Shown: positions 36,001 to 45,000 of the stretch, in pieces
Layout: each line of letters opens with the position of its first letter
Position numbering within the stretch: the stretch's first letter is position 1
From: Candidatus Bathyarchaeota archaeon
GTDB taxonomy: Archaea > Thermoproteota > Bathyarchaeia > TCS64
Length of the DNA: 64,000 nt
Direction: 5' to 3'
NCBI GenBank assembly: GCA_043826455.1
Contig: JBDRQD010000057.1
Location: 30,462-94,461 of the forward strand
Position numbers: made by a program

Positions 36001-39000
36001 CAGGCTCGCCCTCAACGTCCTGGGCATCCTCATAGGCTGCGCCGCCGTCACGGGCCTCATAAGCATCACCCAGGGCCTGACGGTGGAGGTGGGCACCCAG
36101 CTTGAGCTCTTCGGCCCCAACAACCTCATGGTGGTCCCCTACGAGATCAGGGCGGGCAGAGGCCTGGTGGGCCAGGGCATGACTTGGAGGGAGGTCCAGC
36201 TCATCGAGAGGGTCCCCCACGTCAGGTACGTGGCCCCCATCATCGGCACCAAGCAGGCCACCCACACCTACCGGGGCCAGACCTACCGGTCCAGCGTCTT
36301 CGGCGTGGACCCCGTCTACTTCCAGATATTCAAGGCTTACGAGATAGAGGACGGTAGAAGCATGATTTCAGCTGACTCGGGCGCCGCCGTCATAGGCCAC
36401 CTGGTCAGCCAGCCACGGGACAGGGACGAGCCCATATACCAGGCCGGCGACCGGATAAAGCTCACCTTCAACGTGAAGGGAGAGGAGCGGGTGCTCACCT
36501 TCAGGGTGGTGGGCGTCATGAAGGAGGTGGGTGGCACCTTCGGCTCTGAGGACGACAACAGCATAATGATCAGCTTCCGGGAGGCCCAGCAGATCTTCGA
36601 GACCGGCAGCAAGGTGGACTACGTGGCCCTCAGCGTGGACGACGCCCAGTACATCAAGGCTGTCATAGAGGACATCAAGGAAAAGTTCAGCGACAACGTC
36701 ATGATCATGGACTACGAGATGGTGCAGCAGCAGGTGGACCAGATCCTGGGCTCCGTGGAGGCTGTGCTGGGGGGCATCGCGGCCATCAGCCTCCTGGTGG
36801 CGGGCGTGGGCATCATCAACACCATGACCATCAGCGTCATGGAGCGCACCAAGGAGATAGGAGTCCTCAAGGCCATAGGGGGCAAGAACCGTGACATAAT
36901 GTCCCTGTTCCTCACGGAGGTCACCATCACGGGGATGCTGGGCGGCATCACGGGCAGCGCCTTCGGCTTCGTCCTAGGCAAGGCCGTGGGCGGCTACGTG
37001 GGCCTGCCTGTGTCCACCTCACCCGTCCTGGGCGCCATGGTGGTAGGCTTCGCCATAGTCACAGCGGTCCTCGCCGGCCTTTACCCGGCGTGGAGGGCGG
37101 CCAACCTCCACCCCGTGGAGGCCCTCCGCTACGAGTAGGTATCGATCCACCATCCTGGCTCACGCTCATGGTGCACCAGCCTACTCGGTGGACCTGTAGA
37201 GCTTCACCAGGGCGTCCACCAGCTCCTCCTCCGTCTTCAGCCCCGAAACCGCCAGAGGTATGCCCTCGTGCCTCGCCAGCTGGACCGCCAGGGGGTCAAC
37301 TTCTCCCCTGACCCCGTGGAGCACTATGATCCTGGGCTTGAAGGGGCTTATCTTGACGGCTATCATGGGAGACCTGCCCCTGCTGACGTTGCTGAACACC
37401 AGGGCCCGCTCGCTGGTGGTGCCGAATATCCTGTAAAAGTCCAGGCCGCTCAGCATCTGGATAGCCTTGATGCTGTCCACTATGGTGTACCCGAACACGT
37501 CCTGCTGGAGCCTGTCCTCGCCGGCATACACCTTCCCCTTGACGGCCTCAACGATCTCGGTGATCTGGACGGGGGCCATGAACTCCCGGATGTCTATGAA
37601 TACGTCGCTGGGGTCCAGGGTGATCCTGCTCAGCTGCCTTATGTACTGGCCGCCCTTGCCCTCGTCCAGCTCCAGGAGGGCCTCAACGTAGCGCTTTACG
37701 AAGCCGCTTCCCGGGCTCTTCCTGCGCCCCGTCTCGTAGTCGCTTATGACGCTGGGGCTGAGCTCCAGGGCGTTGGCTATCTCTATCTGGCTGACGTTAA
37801 GGAGCCCCCTCCACTTGCGCATGGTCTGCCCGGGGACGTTGGATAGCACTATCTCGCCGGCTATCCGTTTGGCCAATGTGTCCCGGGTGGGGCTGTAGTT
37901 GGACATCAACCATGATCAGTGTGCCTCGGCTTTAAGTGGATCGAAAAAAAATTGGGGTTGCGCCCAATCACTTGGCGGGCTTGAGCTTGACGCCGCAGAC
38001 GCTGCACTTGCCCTCCGCCGTGATCTTGGGCTGCTCCTTAACCTCTTTACCGCATACTCCGCATTTCGGCATGGTTTACGCCTTGAGTTTTATGTGCATC
38101 CGTAAATAAAAATGCTGGGTTAATTTAAAAAAAAATATAATTAACCCTTTTTTCATCGATAAACACACACAAAATCGGTTTAACTTAATGTATTTAGATA
38201 AACAATGGGAAAAATGGTTAAAATGTATGCACCCCCATTTTTCGCACAAAAGTACCAGAAACGGGGACGGTTCTCCACTGCTCCCTTTTATTCCGCTGCT
38301 CCCCATGGAAACATGGTGTGGTTAACTTAAAGGCGGGTGACGAGGCCCCCGACTTCACCCTCCCCGACCAGGATGGCGGGCAGGTGACTCTGAGCAGCTT
38401 CAGGGGCAGGAACCACGTGGTCCTCTACTTTTACCCTAAGGATTTTTCGCCGGGGTGCACGGCCCAGGCCTGCGGCTTCAGGGACGCCTACGAGGACTTC
38501 ACGGACCTGGATGCCGTGGTCATCGGCATCAGCGGCGACACCGTGGAGTCCCATAAAAAGTTCGTTGAAGACTACCTGCTCCCCTTCACTCTCCTCAGCG
38601 ACAGGGACGGCGTGGTGAGGAAACTGTACGGAGCCACCAAGGGGTTCGGGCTGCTGCCGGGGAGGTACACCCTAATCATCGATAAGAGGGGCGTCGTGCG
38701 CCACGTGTTCACCTCTGAGACCAACATGGGTAAGCATGTGGAGGAGGCGACCCGCATCCTCAGGGAGCTGGAAGGCTAGCTCCAGGGCGTCACGGCCGCC
38801 TTCATCAGGAACAGGAGGCCACCAAGCCCCACGTTGATGATGGGGTAGAACCAGTACACGGACGCCACGGGCCTGTTGAGGGCCAGCACCCCAGCAACAA
38901 GTAAAGGGTAGACCAGAGGCAGAAACGATAGTGGGCTGCCCTGGCCCAGGCTGAGGGCTATGAACGCTAACGCGGACCACGAGGCCAGGCAGAGCATGAG

Positions 39001-42000: not shown

Positions 42001-45000
42001 GGGGCTTTGCCTTGAAACACCTGCGGGATGCCTTTTACAGCCGAAGAACCATGGCCGCTCTGGGCATCGCCTTCCTGGGCTCCAGCTACTTCATGACAAG
42101 GTTCTCAGATGTCCCCATCTTCAGCCAGGCCTCAGGCGTCTTCATAGTCGCCATGGCGGCGCCCTCCTACGCGGCGCTGGTCTTGTGGAGGGGAGCGAGG
42201 AGGGGTTCAGCGGCTCTCGTTGTCTTGAGCGTCCTTCCCGTGCTGGTGGAGGCGGCAGCCATATTCACCGGTTTCCCCTACGGCGAGTTCACCTACTCTG
42301 GTAGGCTCGGCTACATGGTTCTGGGCGTTGTGCCATGGCCGGTGGCCTTCGCTTACCCTCCCATGCTGCTGGGGTCCATGGCCTACGCCAGTAGGCTCAG
42401 GGGGGACAGGCTGGGCTTCTCGGCTCTCTCAGCAATCTTCAACGTGGCGGTGGATCTGGTTGTGGATCCGGGGACCGTCCACAGCGGTTTCTGGAGCTGG
42501 TCGCAGCCTGGAGCCTATTTCGGTGTGCCCGTCGTGAACTTCCTGGGCTGGCTGCTCACCGGGTTCCTGTACGCCAACGTATTCTACTCGTTGACGGGTG
42601 GCGAGACCCCGATGGATGCAAGGGTCTCAAGCAGCCTGTTCCTCATCCTGTGCTTCTGGGCCGGGTACCTGTTCTTTAATGGGCTGCATCTCCCGGCGGC
42701 GCTGGGCCTAGCCGAGGCTTGGCTGCTTCTGAGAGAATACGGTTAAAGAAAAGTAGAGGTGCGGCTACCCGCACTTGTTTAAGAGCTGCTGCCACCTCTG
42801 GTCCACGCCGTCCTGGATGGCCTTCAGTATCTCCTCGTTGCGCTTGGGCCTGAACAGGTGCCTGAACCTGCCCTGGGCCTCTAGGTACTGCTCCACCGGC
42901 TTCTTGGTCTCCGGCCTCCTGGCTATGGCGGCGCTTGGTCCGCTGAGCTTCCAGACCGGCTTGCCGTTCACCCTCTCCACATCGAAGAGGGGGAAGATGC
43001 AGGTCTGGGTGGCCAGCCGGGCGACGCTTATGGTGTCGCTGGTCTCGTACCTCCAGCCCCTGGTGCAGGGGATGATGGCGTGGAGGAACTTGGGGCCCAC
43101 GGTGTCGAAGGCCTTCCTGCTCTTGTCCAGTACGTCCTGGGGCCAGGCCGGGTTCAGCGACGCCGCGTAGGGTATGTCGTGAGCCACCACTATGTCCATT
43201 ATGGGCTTCTTCCACTCCATCTTGCCGGGGATGACGCGGCCCGCCGGGCTGGTGGTGGTGCTGGCGGCGAGGGGGGTGCCCCCGCTGCGCTGGATTCCCG
43301 TGTTCATGTAGGCCTCGTTGTCGATGAGCACGTATGTGAAGTGGTGGCCCCTCTCCAGGGCGCCGCTCAGCGCCTGGAACCCTATGTCGTAGGTGCCTCC
43401 GTCTCCCGCGTAGGCTATGACGTTGATGTTCTCGTACTTTGCCAGGGGCCCCTTACCCTTGCGTCTGTGGGCCTTCCACGCCGCCTCTATTCCGCTGGCG
43501 TTGGCCGCCGCGTTCTCGAAGGCGTTGTGGAGCCAGGGCACGTGCCAGCTGGTGTAGGGGAAGATGGTGGTGGCCACCTCCAGGCAGCCCGTGGCGTTGG
43601 TGACTATGGTGGGCCTGTCCGCGGCTGCCTTCATTATCATGCGCACCACTATGGGGTGGGCGCAGCCGGCGCACAGCCTGTGGCCGCTCACCAGGGAGTC
43701 GGGTATCCTGGCTGCTTCCTTCATGGTTAGTCTGGCGCTCATCCTACTCACCTCTCACTCCTATGTAGTTCATCAGCTTGGTCACCTTGCCCGCCTTCCC
43801 TGCCTTCAGGAGGCTGCCGTATATCTCCCTGATCATGGTGGGGCTCACGTCGCGGCCGCCCAGGCCGACAACGTAGTTGGCCATCATGGGCTTCTCCTGG
43901 TCGTGGTAGTAGGCTGTCATCATCTCCTCCATGAGGGGGCTGGCGGGGGCGCCGAAGCTTATGCACTTCTCCATGACGCCCAGCGCAGGCACCTTGCCCA
44001 TGGCCTTCTTCAGCTCCGCCACGGGGAAGGGCCTGAACAGTCTGAGCTTTATCATGCCGGCCTTGACGCCCTCGGCCCTCAGCTCGTCCACCACGTGGCG
44101 GACGGTACCCATGGCTGACCCCATTCCTATGACTGCGACCTCGGCGTCGTCCATCAGGTAGGGCTCCACGTACTCGTAGTTGCGGCCGCTAATCTTGGCC
44201 CACTCCTTCTCCACCTCCTTGATGAACTTGAGGGAGTCCTTGAGGGCCTCCACCTGGTGCATCTTGTGCTCGAAGTAGAAGTCTTGGAGGTCTAGGGGCC
44301 CCATGGTGAGGGGCGCGTCGGGGTTAAGCCTCAGCTCGGCCTCGCCCAAGTGGCCCTCCACCTTGACGAAGGGGCGCTCGCCCACGAACTTCTGGACCAC
44401 CTCATCGGGCAGGGTCATGACGTTCTCCATGGTGTGGCTGAGGGTGAACCCGTCCAGGCACACCATGACGGGGAGCTGAACCTTCAGGTGCTCGCCGATC
44501 CTCCAGGCCGTGATGCTGGCGTCGTAGACCTCCTGGGCGTTCTCGCAGTAGATCTGTATCCAGCCGCTGTCCCTGGCGCCCATAGAGTCGCTGTGATCGT
44601 TGTGGATGTTGATGGGACCGCTCAGCGCTCTGTTAGCCACGGCCATCACAATGGGCAGCCGTAGACTCGAAGCTATGTAGAGTATCTCCCACATGAGGGC
44701 CAGGCCGTTGGCCGCCGTGGCGGTGAAGGCCCTGGCGCCTGCGGCCGCCGCCCCTACGCTGCAGCTCATGGCGCTGTGCTCGCTCTCAACGGCCACGAAC
44801 TCCGTGTCCACGAGCCCGTCGGCCACGTACTCGCTGTACCGCTCCACTATGATGGTCTGGGGGGTGATGGGGTACGCGGCCACCACGTCGGGGTTGACCT
44901 GCTTGGTGGCGTAGGCTACCGCCTCGTCCCCGTTGAGTCCCATAAGTATCTGCTTAGCCATTACTTCCTCACCATCTCAATCGCCTTGACGGGGCACTCA

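Follow-up and report, generated by a model that had tools for sequence, protein, structure and literature searches.

A predicted bacterioruberin-type C50 carotenoid gene cluster in one family of Bathyarchaeia

Described C50 pathways and the bathyarchaeial locus

In Haloarcula japonica, bacterioruberin synthesis is described for c0507 (CrtI/CrtD), c0506 (LyeJ) and c0505 (CruF). CrtD is presented there as a bifunctional phytoene/3,4-desaturase, and a double mutant that contains nothing but phytoene regains bacterioruberin synthesis once C0507 by itself is supplied (PMC11946383). Complete bacterioruberin gene sets including CruF have also been reported for sediment archaea, namely subgroup E of the Thermoprofundales, where the carotenoid genes are associated with genes for heliorhodopsin and for DNA photorepair (PMC9585477). 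The actinobacterial C50 pathway to decaprenoxanthin (CrtEb with CrtYe/Yf) likewise uses a UbiA-family lycopene elongase, CrtB and CrtI.

We analysed a window of 64,000 nucleotides (the whole stretch of DNA studied) from an uncultured sediment archaeon of the Bathyarchaeia that is apparently oxygen-independent (genome 97.7% complete, 7.2% contamination). The genome-wide survey's note had described a halobacterial-type crtD-crtB-lyeJ cluster with a divergent cruF, encoding the whole route from GGPP to bacterioruberin in an anaerobe. The arrangement was borne out by four uninterrupted ORFs (Table 1), which match Amino_oxidase, SQS_PSY, UbiA and Caroten_synth of Pfam (E 1e-22 to 1e-49) and were found in one copy each in a genome-wide search. 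The route to an acyclic C50 carotenoid looks complete, whereas bacterioruberin itself is a product predicted from sequence.

Table 1. The cluster and adjoining features (window positions)
Feature	Position	Strand	Remarks
CrtI/CrtD-family FAD carotenoid desaturase (crtD)	40458..41948	-	496 aa
CrtB phytoene synthase (predicted)	39640..40461	-	273 aa; TTG start, 4-base overlap with crtD stop
LyeJ-type lycopene elongase/1,2-hydratase, UbiA family (predicted)	38776..39633	-	285 aa
CruF-family membrane hydratase (predicted)	42012..42746	+	244 aa; divergent from crtD
BRE/TATA-like element, archaeal, conserved	41971..41983	-	22 bases ahead of crtD start codon
BCP-type peroxiredoxin	38318..38779	+	PF00578; tail-to-tail with lyeJ, 4-base overlap

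The locus has three enzyme families, plus CrtB, in common with the Haloarcula system (PMC11946383), and the NCBIfam models that its LyeJ and desaturase pass are also passed by the halobacterial plasmid copies. Identity to two halobacterial plasmid clusters (tblastn) was 40-41% for LyeJ, 44-46% for CrtD and 26-27% for CrtB. However, the halobacterial-type label did not hold. The halobacterial order is crtI-lyeJ-cruF, while the window has no contiguous crtD-lyeJ-cruF, its host is non-halophilic with no oxidase found, and AU tests rejected a clade with the halobacterial copies (p 0.0026 for the desaturase and 0.023 for LyeJ, with two halobacterial sequences only, both plasmid-borne). By sequence, the nearest kin of the cluster genes are other Thermoproteota and methanogens.

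Clusters in five other Thermoproteota families (f44, f46, f61, f47 and f51) have the same core order, crtD-crtB-lyeJ, as the window. The position of cruF differs, being divergent in the window and directly after lyeJ in f44. Identity between the window and these clusters or methanogen-named homologues was 40-54% for LyeJ and 42-59% for CrtB. The LyeJ of f44 is all but identical to a protein with the name Ca. Methanosuratincola, and that of f46 is identical to one named Ca. Caldarchaeum; further homologues carry the names Methanobacterium, Methanolobus and Methanoculleus. To our knowledge, none of these non-halobacterial clusters has been biochemically characterised.

Gene features and distribution

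Of 10 related loci, eight carry the BRE/TATA-like element at equal distance and the remaining two carry AT-rich variants; the element's position suggests a nearly leaderless crtD-crtB-lyeJ transcript. For cruF, TTG 42012 and ATG 42051 are candidate start codons. Assembled contigs of three of four RNA runs were 90-99% alike over crtD and crtB, which is no proof of transcription; coverage of cruF and lyeJ was slight or absent, and one run had no cluster cover at all, in contig data that cannot rank genes or show absence. The peroxiredoxin is a neighbour and no pathway enzyme; it is positioned equally in related loci L019 and L027 and lies 4.4 kb from cruF in L026.

LyeJ reached 331 bits with PRK12875 (cut-off 205), the model that also recognises the lyeJ products of two halobacterial crtI-lyeJ-cruF clusters, versus 114 bits with PRK13105 (cut-off 217), which takes the Arthrobacter elongase. 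Residues N64, D65, D68, D72, D190 and D194 are invariant with the halobacterial copies, consistent with a LyeJ-type elongase with intact Asp-rich motifs. The actinobacterial pathway differs in this elongase score and in its cyclase, as no CrtYcd/Yef-type cyclase (PF18916) was detected in our genome with a search that was positive in 3 of 14 controls. This points to an acyclic product within the scope of PF18916, which leaves aside the CrtY/CrtL and CruA families. The window also holds two further UbiA prenyltransferases (32221-34064).

The desaturase scored 686 bits with NF058655 (CrtID; cut-off 640) and 468 with TIGR02734 (cut-off 238), both NCBIfam models. Its PDB relatives are 4REP and 4DGK, the latter matching over its full length. 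The closest desaturases come from records titled Bathyarchaeia, and the single best match from a record with a bacterial title. It is the sole CrtI/CrtD-family desaturase of the genome, a predicted phytoene desaturase and probably a 3,4-desaturase as well. The survey's caveat that CrtD would also have to serve as phytoene desaturase is eased by the H. japonica precedent (PMC11946383). However, NF058655 accepts a Bacteroidota CrtI without nearby lyeJ at 785 bits, above both halobacterial proteins, so it does not discriminate between activities and a match means family membership.

When 401 Bathyarchaeia genomes were sampled, lyeJ was found in 17 of 71 in the window's own family and in none of 330 elsewhere in the class, which extends the 7 of 41 order genomes given by the survey. 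The four-gene layout was identical on 12 single contigs. Across the phylum, lyeJ occurred in 24 of 400 Thermoproteota genomes. When metagenomes were scanned with a Methanobacterium-named LyeJ, five loci emerged, of which four were short and relevant; crtB lay upstream in three of these four, which are too short to show cruF. Another Bathyarchaeia family has weak CruF-like matches in 13 genomes, but with no crt gene within 1.5 kb of them and no lyeJ found in that family they do not count as clusters. In L024 crtD and crtB seem fused, and in G042 crtD seems deleted, but both features run across N gaps of the assembly and were not accepted as biological.

The crt gene trees for the most part repeat the groups of the EF-2 tree, with one three-genome clade that is absent from it. 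The LyeJ tree was rebuilt without four rows because long outgroups had distorted the first version, and the CrtB tree, spoiled by one frameshifted row, was used loosely only. Together these patterns suggest that the module is old in the window's family and was mostly inherited vertically with repeated loss; this forms part of our preferred explanation and shares its probability.

Predicted pathway and alternative products

We consider it likely, with a probability of roughly 0.6, that the cluster produces an acyclic C50 carotenoid belonging to the bacterioruberin series. What was observed directly are the genes, their motifs, conservation, purifying selection and distribution; from them we infer every enzymatic step and the role of the product. 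GGPP would be supplied by the one polyprenyl diphosphate synthase (PF00348) of the genome, and CrtB would join two GGPP to phytoene, which the single CrtI/D enzyme would convert to lycopene. Both ends of lycopene would then receive a C5 unit and a hydroxyl group from LyeJ, CrtI/D would introduce the 3,4 double bonds to give bisanhydrobacterioruberin, and CruF would hydrate the added prenyl groups to give mono-anhydro-bacterioruberin and bacterioruberin.

Since the CrtID model accepts a Bacteroidota CrtI and CruF lies below its cut-offs, bacterioruberin itself is a candidate end product among others. It is conceivable, if rather unlikely, that a plain CrtI, or a CruF homologue hydrating another position, leads to tetrahydro- or dihydro-bisanhydrobacterioruberin or another hydroxylated acyclic C50 carotenoid. 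CruF matches PF04240 (Caroten_synth, E 3e-36) and falls under both bacterioruberin-hydratase cut-offs (134 versus 154.7 for TIGR03460, 85 versus 300 for CruF_Halo). It is 27-28% identical to halobacterial CruF over the full alignment, and 34-40% over about 105 aa only (tblastn); a single-sequence AlphaFold model was unusable (pLDDT 44.7). Moreover, all 13 genomes tested from f46, f61, f47 and f51, and one 94% complete member of the window's family, have the triad but no detected PF04240 gene, and four relatives have a second desaturase paralogue, beside an FAD oxidoreductase in three of them. Bacterioruberin is nevertheless favoured by the retention of cruF with the triad in most carriers, by E80, D148 and D152, which are invariant with halobacterial CruF, and by the halobacterial relative of the desaturase, reported as bifunctional (PMC11946383).

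A further alternative, which we regard as improbable, is that without oxygen or quinone the desaturase turns over incompletely, giving colourless or weakly desaturated polyprenoids and pigment only on oxygen contact, or that the flavoprotein is an isomerase or hydratase. Pantoea CrtI requires oxygen or quinone (PMC3382138). CrtI acts as an isomerase under anaerobic conditions, and a Methanosarcina phytoene-desaturase homologue makes hydroxyarchaeol (reviewed in PMC10821996). Consistent with the anaerobic host proposed by the survey, the genome has anaerobe-type markers, and searches of it for the marker genes COX1, cytochrome bd, MqnA/D and MenD came up empty; among 71 family genomes, a single one had COX1 above cut-off. 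As neither an oxidase nor a menaquinone marker was found, the gene content points to no evident electron acceptor for desaturation. On the other hand, anoxygenic phototrophs are known to synthesise carotenoids anaerobically, and the two further UbiA prenyltransferases could make an unrecognised carrier. In addition, a desaturase-less Haloarcula mutant is reported to accumulate phytoene only, with no elongated product (PMC11946383), so that retention of lyeJ implies that desaturation occurs.

It is very unlikely that CrtB is a C30 (dehydrosqualene/squalene) synthase and that a C30 backbone is elongated. The best PDB matches of CrtB are CrtM-type, but this ranking is uninformative because no CrtB structure was among the matches. 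No NCBIfam CrtB model reached its cut-off and HpnD ranked above them, all far under cut-off; halobacterial CrtB likewise ranks HpnD first. The family (PF00494, E 1e-49), both Asp-rich motifs and Ser at the site of the size-limiting Phe26 of CrtM argue for a C40 phytoene synthase, chain length being predicted from this one site, and F26S converts CrtM to a C40 synthase.

That the cluster entered the bin as contamination, or was recently imported from halophiles and is decaying, as the contamination value, a seemingly broken cruF in G042 and a broken desaturase paralogue in G189 might suggest, is hardly credible given its presence in 17 family genomes, the AU tests, the por and RNA-polymerase-type flanks, cruF-side synteny in several relatives, host-like GC3 (0.78-0.88 versus 0.87-0.90 in flanking core genes), cluster GC that tracks the host genome across relatives (0.35 to 0.62), cluster proteins in which no halophile-like lysine depletion was seen, and dN/dS well under 1 (0.12-0.25 against the closest relative, indicating purifying selection: 0.12 for the desaturase against L019, 0.21 for CrtB and 0.25 for CruF; values against two distant relatives were saturated).

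Host context and implications

If a pigment of the bacterioruberin series is made, it would most likely serve as a membrane stiffener and as an antioxidant during occasional exposure to oxygen or light. Photolyase, MsrA, SOUL, TspO and ferritin-like genes lie near the cluster in relatives. Against this reading, no photolyase, heliorhodopsin or Fe/Mn-SOD was detected in the window's genome. The heliorhodopsin result is informative, as a family-wide search matched 9 of 71 genomes; unlike in Thermoprofundales (PMC9585477), these matches do not follow the cluster (2/17 lyeJ-positive versus 7/54 lyeJ-negative genomes). A type-1 rhodopsin search was silent in controls too, which makes its blank uninformative. 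Photolyase matched in 7 of 17 lyeJ-positive versus 2 of 54 lyeJ-negative genomes, a comparison biased by a query from a linked gene, by several partial or broken matches and by non-independent kin.

We found no report of bacterioruberin gene sets in Bathyarchaeia. The degree of surprise was overstated, since the core is present in other Thermoproteota and a bacterioruberin gene set has been reported for sediment Thermoprofundales (PMC9585477). The pathway is known, and published work already places it in non-halophiles; what is new is the host.

We suggest, tentatively and as a doubtful extension, that crtD-crtB-lyeJ(-cruF) may be a module of long standing in non-halophilic Thermoproteota and methanogens. 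It would yield C50 carotenoids in darkness and in the absence of oxygen, with its desaturase handing electrons to some carrier other than oxygen or a recognised menaquinone. If so, bacterioruberin-type skeletons in sediments would mark neither halophiles nor light, and a wider archaeal family of membrane regulators would include the halobacterial pigment as one of its branches. The locus raises the testable puzzle of what reoxidises a CrtI-type desaturase when neither an oxidase nor a menaquinone route is detected in the cell. One family of Bathyarchaeia, which are abundant sediment archaea, joins the predicted makers of C50 carotenoids, and such a carotenoid is a concrete lipid to seek in enrichments.

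Cluster and predicted enzymes

The four genes that the genome-wide survey's note had placed here are all present as intact open reading frames, assigned by Pfam and NCBIfam to the families given in the table. The desaturase stop runs four bases into the crtB start, and the gap between crtB and lyeJ is six bases. A BRE/TATA-like element lies 22 bases ahead of the desaturase start in the window, as it does at 8 of 10 related loci. Each gene occurs once in the window genome (2.95 Mb; completeness 97.7%, contamination 7.2%), and the cluster shows dN/dS of 0.12-0.25 against its nearest relative. 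Judged on sequence, the cluster is real and looks functional. A peroxiredoxin gene adjoins lyeJ; the 2-oxoacid:ferredoxin oxidoreductase operon is convergent with cruF, an adjacency conserved in several genus members.

Features of the cluster and other loci mentioned in the text (window positions unless stated)
Feature	Position	Strand	Assignment
lyeJ	38776-39633	-	UbiA family
crtB	39640-40461	-	squalene/phytoene synthase family
desaturase	40458-41948	-	CrtI family
cruF	42012-42746	+	PF04240 family
oxidoreductase operon	42765-45790	-	porGDAB-like
UbiA pair, first	32221-33114	-	UbiA-family prenyltransferase
UbiA pair, second	33168-34064	+	UbiA-family prenyltransferase
low-GC stretch	30700-32200		receiver-PAS-GAF protein, GC3 0.51
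low-GC stretch	about 59000-64000		
radical SAM protein	48368-49960	-	B12-binding; no family assigned
tandem gene pair	51115-54454 (contig C57, genome coordinates)		thermosome-like, picked up by short motif
second CrtI/D paralog	10355-11833 (locus L026)		

LyeJ passes PRK12875 (331 bits against a cut-off of 205), a model also passed by the corresponding prenyltransferases from two crtI-lyeJ-cruF clusters of Halobacteria; an Arthrobacter elongase, unlike these, falls in PRK13105. Both Asp-rich motifs of LyeJ are invariant. CrtB likewise keeps both of its Asp-rich motifs and carries Ser at the site equivalent to CrtM Phe26, where a Phe-to-Ser change permits C40 synthesis (PMC13304436). One polyprenyl diphosphate synthase was found in the window genome; a CrtYcd-type cyclase was not, while the positive control was recovered. 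CruF retains the residues invariant with halobacterial CruF and scores 134, below the TIGR03460 cut-off of 154.7. The desaturase passes NF058655, a model for bifunctional phytoene/3,4-desaturases, but this model also gives 785 to a Bacteroidota CrtI, so that 3,4-desaturation stays a prediction. The survey's caveat that CrtD must double as phytoene desaturase is eased by Haloarcula C0507: supplied by itself, this protein brings back bacterioruberin in a double mutant otherwise holding only phytoene (PMC11946383). We put the probability of a bacterioruberin-series C50 pathway at roughly 0.6, and a C50 carotenoid of some kind is quite probably the product.

Distribution and history

Wider occurrence of lyeJ among relatives was borne out: it was found in 17 of 401 class genomes, every one in the window's family (17/71). 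Twelve contigs carry all four genes in the same layout; of the other five carriers, two have the genes spread across contigs, in one the cluster runs off a contig end, one is without cruF, and the last has a broken cruF as well as an assembly gap. Orthologs of cruF occur in 15 of the 71 and the desaturase in 16, one of these having only a broken paralog. A second, family-specific CrtI/D paralog (57-59% identical; L026, L031, L032, L033, L193), often in divergent orientation to a gene for an FAD oxidoreductase and broken in at least two genomes, is absent from the window genome. Among the closest desaturases (57-96%), 14 of 15 loci have titles naming Bathyarchaeia or Bathyarchaeota. The best match, L019, bears a bacterial title (Ca. 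Desulfaltia), yet is 94-96% identical to the window cluster and shares its archaeal flanks; the title is likely wrong.

Elsewhere in the phylum, lyeJ was found in 24 of 400 other sampled genomes, in five further families; crtB is adjacent in all 24, and 23 also show the desaturase, with the gene order unchanged. One family (f44) has cruF added behind lyeJ, and none of 13 genomes tested from the four others (f46, f61, f47, f51) yielded PF04240. Beyond the triad (loci L163, 8085-8612, and L158-L159) comes a pyrimidine-dimer glycosylase in f46, with a polyprenyl synthase three genes on, and a GT2 glycosyltransferase in f47, which suggests lineage-specific end products.

The label "halobacterial-type" is not supported as a statement of origin. 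Named LyeJ homologs at 48-54% belong to Ca. Caldarchaeum, Ca. Methanosuratincola, Methanolobus, Methanobacterium and Methanoculleus, whereas halobacterial copies are more distant (40-41%). In the desaturase tree the family falls with other Thermoproteota (94/100), separate from Halobacteria and Bacteroidota, and the CruF tree places it with f44 (96/94). A common clade for the family and the halobacterial sequences was rejected for the desaturase (p 0.0026) and LyeJ (p 0.023), in tests that sampled Halobacteria thinly, by two sequences. Within the family, cluster gene trees match most EF-2 groups, and cluster GC3 is like that of host genes. Cluster presence requires at least seven changes on an EF-2 tree of 28 genomes, hand-picked to hold both carriers and non-carriers. 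The best fit is vertical inheritance accompanied by repeated loss, with a loss count inflated by incomplete genomes and trees that, being unrooted, give no direction.

Bacterioruberin gene sets have been reported in sediment Thermoprofundales (PMC9585477) and Patescibacteria (PMC9948471), CrtB and CrtI from methanogens and crenarchaea were placed in trees in 2010 (PMC2889829), and a 2022 review calls methanogen carotenoids unstudied (PMC9410494). In agreement with the survey's note, our search of open literature and one supplement found no report of the cluster in Bathyarchaeia. For this class PMC7110647 reports only 'crtY'; two of three supplement rows are matches of about 200 residues to 'carotenoid biosynthesis protein', and the K-numbers of crtB, crtI, lyeJ and cruF are absent from 12 of 14 supplement files searched. 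Another Bathyarchaeia family (f26, L113-L127), without lyeJ, has stand-alone CruF-like PF04240 genes in 13 of 59 genomes; these may be what an earlier paper annotated as crtY.

Host and probable role of the predicted pigment

Anaerobic life of the host would follow from gene content: an acetyl-CoA synthase subunit is present, and COX1, cytochrome bd, Fe/Mn-SOD and photolyase were not found in the window genome, although positive controls were recovered. COX1 exceeded its cut-off in 1 of 71 family genomes. Short motifs further picked out what we take to be a superoxide reductase and two rubrerythrins. DNA runs holding at least one fifth of the words, excluding a possible source run, carry the labels aquatic, soil, groundwater and sediment. 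Two stretches have a GC of 0.37-0.48 against about 0.6 elsewhere, and that with the receiver-PAS-GAF protein was possibly acquired.

The electron acceptor for desaturation is a gap in the proposed pathway: Pantoea CrtI depends on a quinone or oxygen (PMC3382138), and searches of the window genome for MqnA/D and MenD found neither. A divergent UbiA pair lies 4.7 kb from lyeJ, one member weakly MenA-like (below cut-off) and the other passing PRK12871; the pair may bear on a quinone-like carrier that has escaped recognition.

In three of four RNA runs examined, all three labelled sediment, desaturase and crtB are covered by contigs that are mostly 90-99% alike, which hints at expression in relatives, although DNA may be included. 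Heliorhodopsin, present in 9 of 71 family genomes and not found in the window genome, has no link with the cluster (2/17 carriers, 7/54 non-carriers). Genes beside the cluster in relatives encode photolyase, MsrA, SOUL, TspO or ferritin-like proteins. Photolyase matches occur in 7 of 17 carriers against 2 of 54 non-carriers, a count biased by a query from a linked gene, broken copies and related genomes. A role of the pigment in stress and the membrane is the likeliest reading. The pathway is a known one for which this Bathyarchaeia family is a new host, and not the recipient of a halobacterial import.
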